NCBI GenBank assembly: GCA_944372195.1
Contig: CALVYK010000006.1
Span: 3,458 to 67,457, forward strand
DNA from: an uncultured Bacilli bacterium
GTDB taxonomy: Bacteria > Bacillota_I > Bacilli_A > RF39 > UBA660
DNA: 64,000 nucleotides
Direction: 5' to 3'
Made by a program: the position numbers and the translations under genes. Positions within the stretch are counted from its first letter, which is position 1. Each line of letters begins with the position of its first letter. Under the pieces are notes generated by a model. The model was not told the DNA's origin. It worked only from the letters and a program-made list of their open reading frames with translations, and did no database searches. Shown here piece by piece: positions 985 to 54,414 of the stretch.

Positions 985-1023
985 TTGTTTGCCTCCTTCT
1001 TTTTTATTTCTGTTTACATTCAT

Positions 1024-1052
1024 ATTGTAACATAGTTTATTTTACTTGTCAA
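1024..1052 (-). promoter_or_regulatory. Promoter TTGACA-N17-TGtTACAAT
   Basis: -35 at 1047-1052 and -10 at 1024-1029 (read on the minus strand). Confidence 0.7.
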
Positions 1053-1055
1053 TAA

Positions 1056-1208
1056 TTATTTTGCTCTTATCTTTCTTAATTTTGTGATTAAAATTTTTGC
1101 TTGTTGTTTGAATTTTGTTTCTTGTTTTGAGCTTATTAAGCATAGCATCATGCAATAATCAATTAACTTTAATTCATCTTCACTTAATCTTACAATAGCT
1201 TCTTTCAT
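1056..1208 (-). CDS. Hypothetical 50-aa protein (below track size cut-off)
   Basis: Hand-translated MKEAIVRLSEDELKLIDYCMMLCLISSKQETKFKQQAKILITKLRKIRAK. It fills the gap between two promoter cassettes and has a purine-rich RBS upstream. Confidence 0.5.
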   Translation of the reverse strand: MKEAIVRLSEDELKLIDYCMMLCLISSKQETKFKQQAKILITKLRKIRAK

Positions 1209-3213: not shown

Positions 3214-3501
3214 TTAATAAGAAATATCTACTCTATAAATTTCTTCTTCATCAAAGCTCTTTTCAGAAATTGTATTATCATATTCTTTAAGTTTATCAAT
3301 GAATTTATCAATTATATCATAACCGATAATTTCAAATATTGCGCCACATTCACCTTCTAAACACCACATTCTATTTCTTGCGAAATCAATTAATTCTTCA
3401 CTTAATCTGTTATTATCAAAAGAAATAATTTCAGTTAATGTTATTGTTTTAGGACTTTTAAATTCTATATCTTGTTTGTATATTGTTGTTGTTCCGCTCA
3501 T
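3214..3501 (-). CDS. Hypothetical protein
   Basis: Track ORF preceded by the promoter-leader cassette. Confidence 0.6.
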   Translation of the reverse strand: MSGTTTIYKQDIEFKSPKTITLTEIISFDNNRLSEELIDFARNRMWCLEGECGAIFEIIGYDIIDKFIDKLKEYDNTISEKSFDEEEIYRVDISY

Positions 3502-44933: not shown

Positions 44934-45476
44934 CTAAATGTTTTTATGAATATTAGCTGTACAATTGTTGTCTATATATTGCTTAATTTCTTCCCAAGAT
45001 ACTGGTTCATATTCCCAGCAATCTACACCTACATCTGTTGATAAACAATAATCATTAAGTTTAGCATGAGTGTGTCCATGTAGTGCATATCCACCTTTAT
45101 AAAAATTATACCATTCTAATAGAGGATAATGCGTTAAATGTATTGTATCACTTCCAATATTAAGAATTTTACTTTCTCTAACATCCAATAATAACCCTTC
45201 TTTTTGACATTTTATAAGATGTTGTTTATTATCATGATTTCCTAATATATATGACTTACGACCATTTAACTGCTTAAAAATATTTTTATAGTTTTCATAG
45301 CTTTGGTTCCAAGCTAAATCACCTAAAAAATATACTACATCTTCTTTTTTAACTAATTTATTATATCTATCAATAATATCCTCATCCATATATTCTATAG
45401 AACTATATGGACGATTAGATAATTTTATTATATTTTTATGACCGAAGTGTTGGTCTGATGTAAACCATATTGTCAT
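44934..45476 (-). CDS. Metallophosphoesterase (YfcE/MJ0936-like)
   Basis: FTSDQHFGH, FLGDLAW, GNHDN, LTHYP, HGHTH. Confidence 0.8.
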   Translation of the reverse strand: MTIWFTSDQHFGHKNIIKLSNRPYSSIEYMDEDIIDRYNKLVKKEDVVYFLGDLAWNQSYENYKNIFKQLNGRKSYILGNHDNKQHLIKCQKEGLLLDVRESKILNIGSDTIHLTHYPLLEWYNFYKGGYALHGHTHAKLNDYCLSTDVGVDCWEYEPVSWEEIKQYIDNNCTANIHKNI

Positions 45477-45502
45477 TTATTTTGTGAACTTTCTGTTTAA
45501 AA

Positions 45503-45574
45503 TTGCGGTGAGTGGACTTGAACCACTGACCTTTGGGGTATGAACCCAACAAGCTACCACTGCTCTACACCGCT
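45503..45574 (-). tRNA. tRNA-Met (CAT) with initiator-like features
   Basis: Anticodon arm TTGGG-TTCATAC-CCCAA (three G:C pairs next to the loop), A1xA72 mismatch, T arm AGTGG-TTCAAGT-CCACT. Confidence 0.75.
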
Positions 45575-45605
45575 ATGTATGTAACTGTATTATTATAATA
45601 AGGTG

Positions 45606-45907
45606 AAAAATATTGTCGACTTGTGAGACTTGCACTCATTTTTCCCTTACCCTAAAGGGTGTTTTACTATATAAACTATCAGTCGTTAGTAGATGCTTAT
45701 AATGTATGGTGCCGAATACTTCGGCATATATGGTTTTACCATCCAACCATAAAGGGATTCCACATTCATTTAGCCTATTTCAACCACAGACTTTGCAATC
45801 ATATTTATCCTAGTGCTCTATAGGTTTAGTATACATATTAACTATAGGTTGCTAAACATATCTAATTAAGCGTTAATTAGAAAACCGTTCTTATTTCAGC
45901 TCACAAG
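45606..45907 (-). ncRNA. Unclassified ~290-nt structured RNA
   Basis: No ORF and locally GC-richer. An 8-bp terminal helix forms between 45900-45907 and 45620-45627, followed by a T-run. Perfect hairpins lie at 45862-45880, 45730-45742, 45710-45726 and 45649-45660. A T-arm-like TGAG-TGCAAGT-CTCA lies near the 3' end. Confidence 0.55.
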
Positions 45908-45975
45908 AAATATTATACTGTAAATTCTGATGTAGTTTGTACTAGATATAATTATTATATATCAAACTTCTAAAA

Positions 45976-46064
45976 TGGGTGGACAGACAGGGCTTGAACC
46001 TGCACTTACTTAGTGTAAATCGGAGTCACAATCCGAAGCGTCTACCAATTTCGCCACTGCCCAC
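45976..46064 (-). tRNA. tRNA-His (GTG) with class II (long variable arm) Leu-like body
   Basis: G-1, acceptor TGGGCAG/CTGTCCA, C73, encoded CCA. D arm GCG-AAATTGGTAGA-CGC, anticodon arm TCGGA-TTGTGAC-TCCGA, variable arm T-TTAC-ACTAA-GTAA-GT, T arm GCAGG-TTCAAGC-CCTGT. Confidence 0.65.
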
Positions 46065-46069
46065 ATAAA

Positions 46070-46158
46070 TGGAGGAAGGCATTGGACTTGCACCAAACCC
46101 ACGTAAATGAGCGTCAGTCTTAGCAGGACGACCCAGTACCTTGACTGGTTTACCTTCC
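46070..46158 (-). tRNA. tRNA-Ser (GCT)-like, non-canonical
   Basis: Acceptor GGAAGGT/GCCTTCC, encoded CCA, loop CTGCTAA, long variable arm. However, the anticodon stem has a bulged T and the T loop reads TGCAAGT (G at position 55). Confidence 0.55.
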
Positions 46159-46163
46159 ATTAA

Positions 46164-46240
46164 TGGCTGGCAGAGTGAGAATCGAACTCACAAAATACCT
46201 TGATTAACAGTCAAGTGCGTTACCATTTCGCCATCTGCCA
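46164..46240 (-). tRNA. tRNA-Asn (GTT)
   Basis: Acceptor TGGCAGA/TCTGCCA, G73, encoded CCA, anticodon arm CTTGA-CTGTTAA-TCAAG, T arm GTGAG-TTCGATT-CTCAC. Confidence 0.75.
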
Positions 46241-46247
46241 ATGAATT

Positions 46248-46335
46248 TAGGTTGAGTTGGAGTTGCACCAACAAAAACTAAAAAAGGTTATGATGTTACG
46301 CACCATCCCGACTAGCTGATATTCGGCTTCAACCT
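46248..46335 (-). tRNA. tRNA-Tyr (GTA)-like element, non-canonical (possible pseudo-tRNA or mimic)
   Basis: Acceptor AGGTTGA/TCAACCT, A73, D arm CCGA/TCGG, anticodon arm ATGGT-GCGTAAC-ATCAT (C33 instead of U33), unstructured T-rich 17-nt variable region, T loop TGCAACT. Confidence 0.4.
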
Positions 46336-46343
46336 ATATAAAC

Positions 46344-46459
46344 GGAATACTTATATGTGCTCTACCATTGAGCTACCTCATGAAATAAATTTCATGGGAT
46401 TGGATTCGAACCAATAATACCAAGCTTAAAAAACTAATATATTTTGCTGTGTGTATTCC
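46344..46459 (-). ncRNA. Circularly permuted tRNA-like RNA (YrlA / Y-RNA-like candidate)
   Basis: 5' GGAATAC (46453-46459) pairs with 3' GTATTCC (46344-46350). Inside, in order: variable region, T arm ATTGG-TTCGAAT-CCAAT (46399-46415), acceptor-like hairpin CCCATGAAA-TTTA-TTTCATGAGG, D arm GCTC-AATGGTA-GAGC. Confidence 0.65.
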
Positions 46460-46546
46460 TCAATTTATACTTTGGATTTTATTTAATTATACAAAATAAT
46501 AGGATTTAACCATATTTTATAAATTATAAACTAATAATTCTTATTA

Positions 46547-46618
46547 TAGCGGTATAGAGAATTGAACTCTAATTCTTAGGTTGAAAACCTAAAGTCCTAA
46601 CCATTAGACGATACCGCC
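46547..46618 (-). tRNA. tRNA-Glu (TTC)
   Basis: Acceptor GGCGGTA/TACCGCT, D arm GTCT-AATGGTTA-GGAC, anticodon arm TTAGG-TTTTCAA-CCTAA, T arm TAGAG-TTCAATT-CTCTA. Confidence 0.8.
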
Positions 46619-46651
46619 AAATTAATTAGCTATATTTAATTTTTTTTAAAA

Positions 46652-46946
46652 TGGTGGAGGTGGAGAGAATTGAACTCTCGTGCAAAAATATTTTTATAAC
46701 ACTTTAATTACAAGTTTATCATGTTTTTTACTTTCCTTCTAATGTTTACATGCAACACCCTAAAAGTCAGCATTCAATTTATACTAAATTGAAAAAAAAT
46801 CACCTAAACAAATAAAAATGAGATTTTATGAACATTTAATTACTTTACTAATTACGCAGCATTTATTTTTTTGTCGTTTTTGAAGTGTACACTCACTTAC
46901 TTGTAGTAATTATAAAAAGATATTTTTGTCAATACCATACACCCCC
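46652..46946 (-). ncRNA. ssrA: tmRNA (SsrA), 295 nt, phage-encoded
   Basis: 5' GGGGGTG pairs with 3' CACCTCC-A-CCA, including a G3:U70 wobble. T arm GAGAG-TTCAATT-CTCTC. 5' GGTATTGAC resembles the conserved GGATTCGAC. Helix 2 is CAAAAATA/TATTTTTG. The tag frame AAC GAC AAA AAA ATA AAT GCT GCG TAA ends at 46852. Confidence 0.85.
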
Positions 46947-47004
46947 ATTTAAAACTGGCTGTATAAAATATTTAGATTTCAATGTTCAATTTTGATATAT
47001 TTTT

Positions 47005-47033
47005 ATTATAGCACTATTATTTTTATTTGTCAA
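47005..47033 (-). promoter_or_regulatory. Promoter TTGACA-N17-TATAAT heading the RNA-gene cluster
   Basis: -35 at 47028-47033, -10 at 47005-47010; about 55 nt upstream of the tmRNA 5' end. Confidence 0.7.
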
Positions 47034-47039
47034 GTGGTT

Positions 47040-48752
47040 TTAAAAATTTTTTATATTATTATCGCAAATGCAATATTCTTTAAGTGTTTCGACCTGTTCA
47101 AAGAATAATTTATCTAAATCCTTAGAATCTAAATCTTCAAAATTATCTACTTTCATATAAATATCAAGAAGAACCTTTTTTACAACTTCATTTACTTCAT
47201 CATTATACAATAAATTAGAAAAGAAATTAGTAAAATCTATTTTTTGTGATTGAAAACTTTTAATATACGGATATATTAACTCTAAGAATATATTTTTGTA
47301 AAAAGAGTCCATATAATTTATAGCTTTAAGTCTTATTAATTCTACCGCTCTATTATTTGAAAAAATAGGACTAAAACATGTTGCTAATAATATTTTTTGT
47401 GCAAAAACAGGTCTACTGTCATAATGTATATCTTTTTTAACTATATCTTCTTGTTTTTCTGTGTGCCATTTTATTTTTTTATAAATATCATTTTCAGAAA
47501 TTATAAGTTTATTAGCAACAAGTTCAATATATTGTTTTCTATCCATAAAATTTGAGATATTAGCTAATATTGGAACCAAAAAATTTAAACAGCTTGTTTT
47601 TTCTTCAATATTCTTTGGATTTATATTCTTTAACTTTAAATCAATTAAAAATTCATTATAAATTTTTGAATGTTTAATTAAATTATTAAAATCTTCTCTT
47701 GTATGATTTGTAAGGTACATATCAGCGTCACATTTTGACCCATCCTTATTTCTCAAATCAATTATATACACTTTAGCATAAGGTATATTGCTTTTGATAG
47801 TAGCAACAAGCTTATCTAAAGATGTTAAGCCTTTTGTATCTGGTCTTAAAGGTGCATCATCTTCTAAACAATAATAGAACTTATCTGTATATTTTTTTAA
47901 CATATTAACTTGACAATCTGATATATTAAGCCCATCTAAACATACAGCATTAACAATTCCCTTTTGATGACATTTAATTACATCAATATTACCTTCAACT
48001 AAAATAACTGAATTAAAATTTTTTATATATTTTTTTGCTTGATATAAACCAAATATAAATTGACTTTTTTCATATATTTCTGTGTTAGAAGTGTGCATAT
48101 ACTTATAGTTGTCACTATCTACGTATAATCTTCCTGTAAAACTAAGTATATTACCATATTCATCAATTCTTGGGAAAATAACTCTATCATTTTTAAATTT
48201 AGCATGATAATTGTTATTTAAATCTGGGACTATTAATCCTAACCTTTTCAAGCTATCTTTAAAAGGAAGTTTATTTATGCCACATCCTATTTTAAAATCT
48301 TCTATTATCTTAGGAGATAATCCTCTTATTTTAGTCAAATAATTATAAGCTTCGTTATTACCCTTTAGTGATAACTGAAATTTTTCACACATAAGTTTGT
48401 TAATATCATATAAAGACTTTTTTACTTTATATTTTTCTTCTTCTTCGGGTGATAATTCAATAGTAACATCATATAACTTTGCTATTGCTTCTACAGCTTC
48501 ACCAAAAGATACATTAAAAAATCTTTTGTAAAAAGAGAATACATCACCACCTGTGTTACAAGACCCCCAACATCTCCATAAACCATATTGTGTATCTATT
48601 GAGAATGAAGGTCTATTTTCATTATGAAAAGGGCATAATGCAAATGCTCTATTACTACCAGTATTTTTTAAGTCTGGCAAATATTTTTTATAAAAATCAA
48701 AAAAATTAATTTTAGATTTAATTTCGTCTAATTTTTCACGTGTGTATAACAT
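47040..48752 (-). CDS. dnaG: DnaG-type DNA primase
   Basis: CHC2 zinc finger CPFHNENRPSFSI...WRCWGSC; TOPRIM VILVEGNIDV ... LEDDAP. Confidence 0.85.
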   Translation of the reverse strand: MLYTREKLDEIKSKINFFDFYKKYLPDLKNTGSNRAFALCPFHNENRPSFSIDTQYGLWRCWGSCNTGGDVFSFYKRFFNVSFGEAVEAIAKLYDVTIELSPEEEEKYKVKKSLYDINKLMCEKFQLSLKGNNEAYNYLTKIRGLSPKIIEDFKIGCGINKLPFKDSLKRLGLIVPDLNNNYHAKFKNDRVIFPRIDEYGNILSFTGRLYVDSDNYKYMHTSNTEIYEKSQFIFGLYQAKKYIKNFNSVILVEGNIDVIKCHQKGIVNAVCLDGLNISDCQVNMLKKYTDKFYYCLEDDAPLRPDTKGLTSLDKLVATIKSNIPYAKVYIIDLRNKDGSKCDADMYLTNHTREDFNNLIKHSKIYNEFLIDLKLKNINPKNIEEKTSCLNFLVPILANISNFMDRKQYIELVANKLIISENDIYKKIKWHTEKQEDIVKKDIHYDSRPVFAQKILLATCFSPIFSNNRAVELIRLKAINYMDSFYKNIFLELIYPYIKSFQSQKIDFTNFFSNLLYNDEVNEVVKKVLLDIYMKVDNFEDLDSKDLDKLFFEQVETLKEYCICDNNIKNF

Positions 48753-54137: not shown

Positions 54138-54165
54138 TTGACAAAAAAACATTATATGTTATACT
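54138..54165 (+). promoter_or_regulatory. Promoter TTGACA-N16-TGtTATACT
   Basis: -35 at 54138-54143, -10 at 54160-54165. No ORF follows before the next promoter. Confidence 0.7.
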
Positions 54166-54203: not shown

Positions 54204-54273
54204 AGAATACATACAGCAAACTAAAATTATATACTGAAAATATTTGCTCCTATTTTGTTTAAAAAAGTATTCT
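54204..54273 (+). ncRNA. Y-RNA-like stem module b (stand-alone transcript candidate)
   Basis: AGAATAC (54204-54210) pairs with GTATTCT (54267-54273); 5'-side motif ATACAGCAAAC; inner helix CAGCAAA/TTTGCT; followed by gttaaattttta. Confidence 0.5.
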
Positions 54274-54295
54274 GTTAAATTTTTATAAAAAATAC

Positions 54296-54324
54296 TTGAC
54301 AAAATGATTAATATATGATATAAT
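54296..54324 (+). promoter_or_regulatory. Promoter TTGACA-N17-TGaTATAAT
   Basis: -35 at 54296-54301, -10 at 54319-54324. Confidence 0.75.
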
Positions 54325-54353
54325 GTAAGTATATTAAATATAATTAAAAAAAA

Positions 54354-54411
54354 AGATTACAGACAGCAAACTAAATTACAAAATATTGGCGCTTTCAAAG
54401 TAATTTGTAAT
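54354..54411 (+). ncRNA. Y-RNA-like stem module c (in the 5' leader of CDS 54504-55898)
   Basis: AGATTACA ... TGTAAT closing helix with a compensatory A:T to T:A change relative to modules b and d; motif GACAGCAAAC; inner hairpin AAATTAC/GTAATTT. Confidence 0.5.
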
Positions 54412-54414
54412 AAA

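Follow-up and report, generated by a model that had tools for sequence, protein, structure and literature searches.

A tRNA-shaped Y-like RNA in a phage tRNA cluster and its proposed partner, a Ro60-like DUF2828/DUF7788 protein

What kind of RNA is encoded where the arms of a tRNA stand in permuted order, on the minus strand, inside a cluster of tRNA genes? The question is raised by positions 46339-46459 of the stretch of DNA analysed here (the window: 64,000 nt, positions 3,458 to 67,457 of contig CALVYK010000006.1 in assembly GCA_944372195.1, from an uncultured Bacilli bacterium), where the first-pass annotation had proposed a candidate YrlA-type Y RNA. Ro60/Y RNA particles are a classic RNA-surveillance system, and to our knowledge they have been known in bacteria and phages only as TROVE-type Rsr with GNCGAA-type RNAs. 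We propose, at a probability of about 0.7, that the phage encodes four small RNAs which act as Y RNAs for its own DUF2828/DUF7788 protein, and that the candidate RNA is the tRNA-shaped one among them. The earlier interpretation is right in its architecture and in its logic, and wrong in the family.

Read 5' to 3', the candidate carries all of the elements that had been listed for it, in the same order and at the same positions (Table 1); the spacer that follows the D arm had been given as A and is AC in the sequence, and the rest of the list stands. A T arm, a closed acceptor-like hairpin and a D arm follow one another under a terminal helix, an order that is confirmed by the sequence and by the fold proposed as a check, since the minimum free energy structure recovers the closing helix, the T arm, the hairpin and the D arm (z = -2.4). 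By direct reading of the sequence the nucleotides of the tRNA elbow are intact (U8, A14, G18-G19, the A15:U48 pair and the T loop UUCGAAU). An anticodon loop is missing, a loop of 4 nt seals the acceptor stem, where neither discriminator nor CCA is present, and the candidate is called a tRNA by neither ARAGORN nor the Rfam tRNA model. Such an arrangement raises the alternative of a circularly permuted or decayed tRNA gene, which either matures to a working tRNA or represents the chance junction of two fragments. In the red alga Cyanidioschyzon merolae, permuted tRNA genes place the 3' half before the 5' half and mature to normal tRNAs via a circular intermediate. The candidate is alike in the order of its halves, and its position in a tRNA cluster also speaks for this alternative, but it differs in its tetraloop-sealed acceptor end and in having no anticodon loop, which joining of its ends would not supply.

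The ends of the candidate recur within the window. A search for GAWTACNNACAGCA with at most one mismatch found exactly four sites against 0.32 expected, namely the candidate and three plus-strand sites at 54205, 54355 and 54416. Closing helix and motif had been said to recur three times at 54204-54473, next to the gene for a vWA protein, and both statements are borne out, with the open reading frame (ORF) 54507-55898 lying directly downstream of the three further copies. These copies are hairpin RNAs of 53-70 nt (RNAs B, C and D), which stand 30-300 nt upstream of this DUF2828/DUF7788 gene and on its strand. All four RNAs are built alike at their ends: the 5' arm of a 7-bp helix leads into 2 nt and ACAGCA(A/U)A, and the insert gives way to the 3' arm and then G. 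The insert is a small hairpin in RNAs B-D and a tRNA body in the candidate.

Beyond the window, the candidate belongs to a family of RNAs. A covariance model of 128 positions (R1) draws on 44 RNAs from other phages and excludes the window. It gives 46339-46459 (-) a score of 86 bits (E 9e-15), with an alignment that runs from model position 1 to 128, and a full-length score of this size from a window-free model indicates that the candidate is not a product of chance, as had been argued against a chance pair of tRNA fragments. Scanning of viral contigs with the pattern ACAGCA..GGTTCGAATCC..TAGCTCA returned more than 120 loci, about 70 of them with exactly the layout of the candidate. The scan did not demand a closing helix, and 57 of 105 distinct matches have a perfect one of 7 bp at the 2-nt offset, compared with 2-5 in each of four controls; the stem sequences of the members are all different. 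Alignment of 48 members with RNAalifold gives the closing helix, the T arm, the acceptor hairpin and the D arm, and compensatory changes support 18 of the 22 pairs; ACAGCA is invariant in these 48, as the fetching pattern requires it to be. The base after ACAGCA, which the scan left free, is A in 80% of 218 RNAs; of the same RNAs, on whose tails no requirement was placed, 95% have G directly after the 3' arm and 65% have U as the next base. The median length of the short forms is 59 nt. Some inserts are larger, 160-nt multi-stem structures with three hairpins in the predicted fold, and the acceptor stems of the tRNA-shaped members are closed by UUUA, UUCG, GAAA and similar short stable loops. 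More than 50 unrelated phages keep the permuted order and ACAGCAA, with covariation, and calls by ARAGORN overlap just 1 of 57 tRNA-shaped members, which, with the sealed acceptor stems, makes a permuted or decayed tRNA gene an extremely unlikely explanation. No family in Rfam 15 covers the module of helix and ACAGCAA, and we found no paper that describes the RNA family, a few members of which may be among the 22 phage hits of Chen et al. 2014.

This RNA family is linked to the protein gene in both directions. From protein to RNA, 80 bacterial and archaeal loci (536 kb) were fetched by protein patterns alone, and R1 has 41 hits in them, every one on the gene strand and most of them no further than ~600 nt upstream of the gene. 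Of the occurrences of the strict motif, 213 are on the gene strand and 5 on the opposite one; the motif is present in 70 of the 80 loci with 165 hits no more than 800 nt upstream, and its arrays reach up to ~7 RNAs per locus. In the 21 best R1 hits 93.7% of cells are paired, as against 33-48% with the partners slid. Double changes are found at 7 of 7 pairs of the closing helix in this protein-fetched set, and the acceptor-like helix covaries at all 7 of its pairs too; together with the compensatory changes seen by RNAalifold, this supplies the covariation that had been named as a check on the closing helix. Loci reached through the protein carry 2-3 RNAs of the same design each in the gap before the gene, with unrelated stems (AGATTTC/GAAATCT, TGGATAC/GTATCCA, TAGGTGC/GCACCTA, AAGGTTC/GAACCTT). 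From RNA to protein, the ~10 kb surveyed hold a DUF2828 ORF for 19 of the 57 tRNA-shaped RNAs found by RNA pattern alone, in all 19 cases on the strand of the RNA and in 15 within 900 nt; some other members lie 3.6-6.9 kb from the gene. A true tRNA is present within 300 nt of 44 of the 57. In the phage loci L002-L006, a DUF2828 gene encoding a 37% identical protein is directly trailed by a cluster of 5-6 tRNAs, as is its counterpart in the coliphage Bas63.

The protein itself is most readily understood from its predicted fold. The product of ORF 54507-55898 matches PHROG 850, 'RNA-binding protein', and the five top Foldseek matches to its AlphaFold model (pLDDT 80, pTM 0.79) are Ro60 structures (Xenopus 1yvp and 2i91; Thermus phage phiLo 9l5y), aligned at full length over 505-574 columns with probability 1.0, E 1e-6 to 6e-5 and TM 0.48-0.57; isolated vWA domains rank next. 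Sequence identity to these Ro60 structures is 12-14%. The MIDAS residues (metal ion-dependent adhesion site), DxSxS..T..D (D278, S280, S282, T343, D375), are invariant in 25 and in 40 homologues, one distant relative has a weak vWA_Ro60 match, and no NCBIfam model matches the product. On its modelled structure the product is a Ro60-like protein of HEAT-repeat ring and vWA domain, in a family distinguished from TROVE by sequence models, and the earlier proposal of a vWA protein as the Ro60-type partner is in keeping with this fold. Homologues are present in at least 711 sequenced phage records, including Felix O1-like coliphages, phages of Salmonella, Listeria, Staphylococcus, Campylobacter, Vibrio and Bacillus, and cluster L mycobacteriophages, in which the homologue carries the annotation 'Ro-like RNA binding protein'. 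The same fold is matched in the BFVD database by proteins of protist giant viruses (Pithovirus, Marseillevirus, CroV, ChoanoV1 and Bodo saltans virus); on the gene strand of the giant-virus loci L007 and L008 no clear ACAGCAA RNA was seen. The RNAs apparently form a large family, undescribed so far, that adjoins a Ro60-like gene in hundreds of phages and in many bacterial and archaeal assemblies.

If the design is that of a Y RNA, is the candidate a YrlA? According to Chen et al. 2014 (PMC4201824), YrlA RNAs carry the motif GNCGAAN0-1G, the proposed Rsr-binding site, near their 5' end, and are encoded on the strand of a TROVE-domain Ro60 orthologue that is no more than 4 kb distant; they bind Rsr and bear tRNA modifications (TruB, DusA). 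The likeness is extensive: both are small RNAs in which a terminal helix with a protein site, putative here, encloses a variable stretch, a T arm, a closed acceptor-like stem and a D arm, with the elbow nucleotides of tRNA conserved and a gene for a ring and vWA protein nearby, and the smaller second RNA with the same binding motif that often accompanies YrlA (YrlB) is comparable to the short forms described here. They differ in the putative site, which is ACAGCAA with a 3' G-U tail rather than GNCGAAN0-1G, in the proposed DUF2828/DUF7788 partner, in the arrays of RNAs and in the frequent occurrence within phage tRNA clusters. A true YrlA (RF02553), serving a canonical TROVE-type Rsr/Ro60 such as that of the host, would account for the shared order of T arm, acceptor stem and D arm and for the partial matches of RF02553 to the candidate (23.6 bits, E 0.04) and to the GC-rich tRNA-shaped RNA of mycobacteriophage Whirlwind (38.3 bits). 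Both matches are, however, far under the gathering score of 69 bits and are confined to the tRNA-like core, positions 24-84 of 114 in the model; GNCGAAN0-1G does not occur in the candidate, whose 5' region reads GGAAUACACACAGCAAAAUAUAU with ACAGCAA in its place; no TROVE gene was found at the locus, where the DUF2828/DUF7788 ORF is the sole Ro60-like one in a partial scan of the window's ORFs; and the RNA family tracks DUF2828 genes. We therefore consider a true YrlA very unlikely. The assignment to YrlA, for which a search with the Rfam model had been suggested, fails on this sub-threshold, core-only match, on the missing motif and on the partner, which is not TROVE and lies 8 kb away on the opposite strand. 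The YrlA-like architecture and the Y RNA/Ro60 logic hold, through the order of the arms, the terminal helix, the module shared with the RNAs next to the gene and the Ro60 fold. Compared with Ro60 and metazoan Y RNAs and with Yrl1 and Yrl2 of phage phiLo (PMC12135203; 1yvp, 2i91, 9l5y), the system shares the full-length match of the predicted fold, a 5'/3' stem that flanks a conserved single-stranded or bulged motif, and RNA genes upstream of the protein gene; it differs in that the proteins are only 12-14% identical in sequence and that the Yrl RNAs of phiLo have a CGAA motif (PMC12135203) where the present RNAs have ACAGCAA.

Cultured phages carry the same pair of protein and RNAs. The window protein has a homologue in gp130 of the E. 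coli phage Bas63 (JohannRWettstein), with 33% identity across 99% of the length; the Ro60-like structure of gp130 has been noted, gp130 is reported to counter the ppl defence, and knockout and complementation phenotypes tie it to escape from host defence (PhageMaP 2024 preprint, PMC11482910). The authors of this preprint guessed that some of the 'tRNA genes' downstream of gp130 may be Y RNAs and did not identify the RNAs themselves (PMC11482910); whereas the preprint named none, two are now located, a short RNA (L137 5421-5478, which is MZ501086 82239-82296) and a tRNA-shaped RNA (L137 5963-6088 (+), which is MZ501086 82781-82906), in the tRNA cluster ~0.5-1 kb downstream of the gp130 gene. 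Neither is annotated as a tRNA, and the tRNA-shaped RNA overlaps a hypothetical coding sequence on the opposite strand, bas63_0137, which is probably a mis-called ORF. In Whirlwind, a short, a tRNA-shaped and a second short ACAGCAA RNA follow directly after the Ro-like gene 55 (L138 4983-5239), and the homologue in phage LeBron is toxic on overexpression (PMC13148394). Bas63 gp130 is best read as a member of the same parallel Ro60-like/Y-like RNA system. The link of its locus to anti-defence (PMC11482910) also suits a different explanation, a free tRNA mimic that works without the Ro60-like protein, acting as decoy or sponge either for an enzyme that binds tRNA or for a host defence nuclease directed at tRNAs, as do the intact elbow nucleotides and the 44 of 57 members that lie in phage tRNA clusters. 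Such a mimic has no anticodon loop with which to lure anticodon nucleases; the helix, ACAGCAA and the tail are conserved at least as well as the tRNA part and are common to RNAs that have no tRNA module; and the linkage to DUF2828 is strict in strand and distance. We regard the free mimic as quite unlikely.

The position of most copies suggests another alternative, in which the helix, ACAGCAA and the G tail form a cis-acting leader or processing signal of the DUF2828 mRNA, or are recognised by something other than the Ro60-like protein, for instance an RNase or a host RNA-binding protein; the RNAs would then not be trans-acting ligands of that protein, and their linkage to its gene would be due to co-regulation alone. 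Most copies are indeed arrayed no more than 800 nt upstream of the gene on its strand, RNAs C and D come after a promoter and before the start codon, where no terminator is predicted, and the look-alike Class I RNA of Dictyostelium is reported to bind an RRM protein, Rnp1A (PMC7919456). A cis-acting role is difficult to reconcile with the candidate itself, distant from the gene in a tRNA cluster on the other strand, with the copies of Bas63, which are outside any 5' untranslated region (5' UTR) in the downstream tRNA cluster, with further copies downstream of the gene as in Whirlwind, or with RNA B, which is flanked by a promoter of its own and a further promoter downstream. Furthermore, the varied inserts (tRNA-like, three-way junction) look like modular stand-alone RNAs. 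We consider this alternative unlikely.

Several points weigh against our reading of the four RNAs as Y RNAs of the DUF2828/DUF7788 protein. Unlike most members, the candidate is separated from the gene by ~8 kb and sits on the other strand; RNAs C and D may be 5' UTR elements of the gene that act in cis; and the short AT-rich RNAs show no gain in folding over shuffled sequence (z -0.1 to -1.1). A filter demanding the closing helix was used to pick part of the RNA set; the helix count of 57 in 105, the R1 hits in protein-fetched loci, the slide control and the strand count of the strict motif are free of it. The long bulged helix seen at the anticodon position stands in its outer part, the 7-bp helix that covaries, and has no comparative support in its inner part, UAUAU/AUAUA: in a crude family-wide test a helix of at least 5 bp occurs in 16 of 46 members against ~31% expected, and with a frequency so near expectation we do not claim an inner 'anticodon stem'. 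Pfam TROVE does not match the protein, which is matched by DUF2828 and DUF7788 only, and searches of PDB sequences with the protein and with its profile found no Ro60; homology to Ro60 consequently rests on a predicted fold with the TM scores given above. Phages with a 65-72% identical protein have no tRNA-shaped member within 10 kb of the gene, so that direct orthologues of the candidate are absent from the comparison and the support is drawn from the wider family. Finally, the transcription of the RNAs, their ends and their binding to the protein are predictions.

The family includes variants that bear on its design. In L139 796-904 (+) there is an unpermuted twin, a tRNA with an open acceptor end that carries the same helix and ACAGCAA, as the hairpin AGTAACC-AGAT-GGTTACT and then C-ACAGCAAG, at the position of the anticodon loop, which supports the shape, rather than the order of the chain, as what matters. 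In the same locus, inside the RNA array ~270 nt upstream of the DUF2828 gene, the freshwater-1 motif RF02979 is matched at 1007-1068 (+) with 82.7 bits, above its gathering score, and this position may be a clue to the context of an orphan motif. We rejected freshwater-1 as another form of the ACAGCAA motif; its consensus holds CACAGCAAC, but this stretch is a covarying paired segment (CUACA in L139). Long members of 172-177 nt are found at L014 9807-9978 and L015 9801-9977 (+), with a three-hairpin insert closed by the helix and ACAGCA (z -4.5 and -3.6), and L015 has a separate conserved-looking hairpin between RNAs 2 and 3. A tRNA-shaped subgroup (L039, L041, L090, L095 and L106) has the stem AGGAAAC/GTTTCCT and AAA in place of the usual G tail. 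An anticodon-arm-like hairpin in the variable region, with a 7-nt CU-NNN-AA loop, was likewise set aside as a subgroup feature that does not define the family, being present in 17 of 48 members only and missing from the window.

The short forms also closely resemble RNAs from a eukaryote, the Class I RNAs of Dictyostelium, which are abundant and developmentally regulated. Class I RNAs (RF01414; Kjellin et al. 2021, PMC7919456) are ~60 nt long and have a short covarying 5'/3' stem whose 5' arm adjoins CCUUACAGCAA. Their invariant 5' G is paired to the C in a CUGU tail at the 3' end, and the remainder is variable; they are transcribed from DUSE promoters, and their sole proven binder is Rnp1A (PMC7919456). 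RF01414 matches five short RNAs at full length and exactly at the coordinates defined by our scan, window RNA B at 24.2 bits and four short RNAs of other loci at 24.1-32.4 bits, all in the range of 24-32 bits against a gathering score of 41.5. The phage consensus from R1 reads aGgacccuuACAGCAA...ggucCuGuu, the RNA at L139 660-721 has the complete 11-nt motif CCUUACAGCAA and a CUG tail, and window RNA B has AUACAGCAA and a CUGUU tail. The short forms resemble Class I in the length of ~60 nt, the 5'/3' stem, the motif directly after the 5' arm and the CUGU-like tail, and differ in that all score below 41.5 bits and the spacing from stem to motif is off by 1-2 nt. That the short DUF2828-associated RNAs and the Class I RNAs are one RNA family is a tentative hypothesis, possible but on balance doubtful.

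The features of the window are collected in Table 1. The candidate lies within a minus-strand cluster of RNA genes in the order transfer-messenger RNA (tmRNA), tRNA-Glu, candidate, Tyr-like, tRNA-Asn, Ser-like, tRNA-His and tRNA-Met, and the tmRNA is the first gene past a perfect sigma-70-like promoter at 47033-47005. Searching the INPHARED collection with the DNA of 45000-47500 returned matches at the level of tRNAs only and no close relatives.

Table 1. Positions of the candidate RNA, the short RNAs, the protein gene and neighbouring features in the window
Feature	Position	Strand	Basis or remark
tRNA-shaped Y-like RNA, whole, ~120 nt	46339..46459	-	R1 covariance model, sequence reading, fold
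Closing helix, 5' arm GGAAUAC	46453..46459	-	pairs with 46344-46350; helix covaries family-wide
Spacer AC and ACAGCAAAA, including the single-stranded motif ACAGCAA(AA)	46442..46452	-	proposed (putative) protein-binding site
UAUAU	46437-46441	-	sequence
Variable stretch, 21 nt, between UAUAU and T arm		-	sequence
T arm AUUGG-UUCGAAU-CCAAU	46399..46415	-	sequence, Rfam YrlA core match, RNAalifold, R1
Acceptor-like hairpin CCCAUGAAA-UUUA-UUUCAUGAGG, closing tetraloop UUUA	46376..46398	-	sequence, fold
UA, equivalents of U8-A9, preceding the D arm	46375-46374	-	sequence
D arm GCUC-AAUGGUA-GAGC	46359..46373	-	sequence, Rfam YrlA core match, RNAalifold
AC-AUAUA-A between D arm and 3' arm		-	sequence
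Closing helix, 3' arm GUAUUCC	46344..46350	-	sequence, fold, R1
Conserved 3' tail GUUUA	46339..46343	-	tail-base frequencies in 218 RNAs
Short Y-like hairpin RNA B: AGAAUAC-AU-ACAGCAAAC...GUAUUCU-GUUAA	54204..54278	+	motif search; R1 30.4 bits; Rfam Dicty_Class_I 24.2 bits
Short Y-like hairpin RNA C: AGAUUAC-AG-ACAGCAAAC...GUAAUUU-GUAAU, one G.U pair	54354..54411	+	motif search, alignment, fold
Short Y-like hairpin RNA D: AGAAUAC-AA-ACAGCAUAA...GUAUUCU-GAAUA	54415..54478	+	motif search, alignment, fold
Ro60-like protein gene, 463 aa, vWA with MIDAS; proposed RNA partner	54507..55898	+	Pfam DUF2828 and DUF7788, PHROG 850, AlphaFold/Foldseek
Sigma-70-like promoter TTGACA-16-TATACT, upstream of RNA B	54138..54165	+	consensus match only
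Sigma-70-like promoter, perfect, TTGACA-17-TATAAT with TG, upstream of RNAs C and D and the gene	54296..54324	+	consensus match only
Sigma-70-like promoter, perfect, heading the tmRNA/tRNA/Y-like RNA cluster	47005..47033	-	consensus match only
Phage-encoded tmRNA	46652-46946	-	Rfam RF00023, 61.8 bits against gathering score 47; not called by ARAGORN
Degenerate class-II-like tRNA-Tyr(gta)	46247-46336	-	ARAGORN at relaxed threshold only; missed by Rfam tRNA
Degenerate class-II-like tRNA-Ser(gct)	46070-46158	-	ARAGORN at relaxed threshold only; missed by Rfam tRNA

We propose a model for the four RNAs in which the helix, the 2 nt, the single-stranded ACAGCAA of the 5' strand and the 3' G-U tail would form a docking module for the ring-shaped Ro60-like protein, in the way that Ro60 recognises its Y RNAs through the 5' strand of their conserved helix. 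The part enclosed by the helix would be an exchangeable effector, a small hairpin in the RNAs beside the gene and a tRNA body in the candidate. The candidate would be transcribed inside the tmRNA/tRNA cluster and is probably freed by processing of the adjoining tRNAs, since the tRNA-Tyr-like gene begins 7 nt beyond its 3' arm and cleavage by RNase P at that point could set its 3' end. The tRNA body could offer its elbow to enzymes of tRNA handling or RNA decay, or it could gate the ring, and the complex might recruit an exonuclease, as in the Rsr/Y RNA/PNPase assembly, gate the ring or block a defence system. The downstream function may be RNA quality control or anti-defence, the latter as for the Bas63 homologue gp130.

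The finding is best read as a second, parallel Ro60-like/Y-like RNA system beside the TROVE/GNCGAA type, with the architecture of YrlA and yet not YrlA. A family known as a 'domain of unknown function' takes, by prediction, the Ro60 fold and travels with an RNA family of its own that is absent from Rfam 15, and this RNA family is modular, with hairpin, multi-stem-junction and tRNA-shaped versions. The system is widespread and reaches genetically tractable phages; as gp130 has already been tied to escape from defence, the RNAs located in Bas63 give that phenotype a candidate molecular partner. Mis-annotations in phage tRNA clusters become correctable, freshwater-1 gains a genomic context, and there is a lead on the Class I RNAs of Dictyostelium. 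Should the tentative link to Class I prove true, these RNAs would be the Y-like RNAs of a DUF2828/DUF7788 Ro60 paralogue that spans phages, bacteria, archaea, protist giant viruses and eukaryotes, and the tRNA-shaped RNA of the phage would be one effector variant of an ancient cross-domain ribonucleoprotein.

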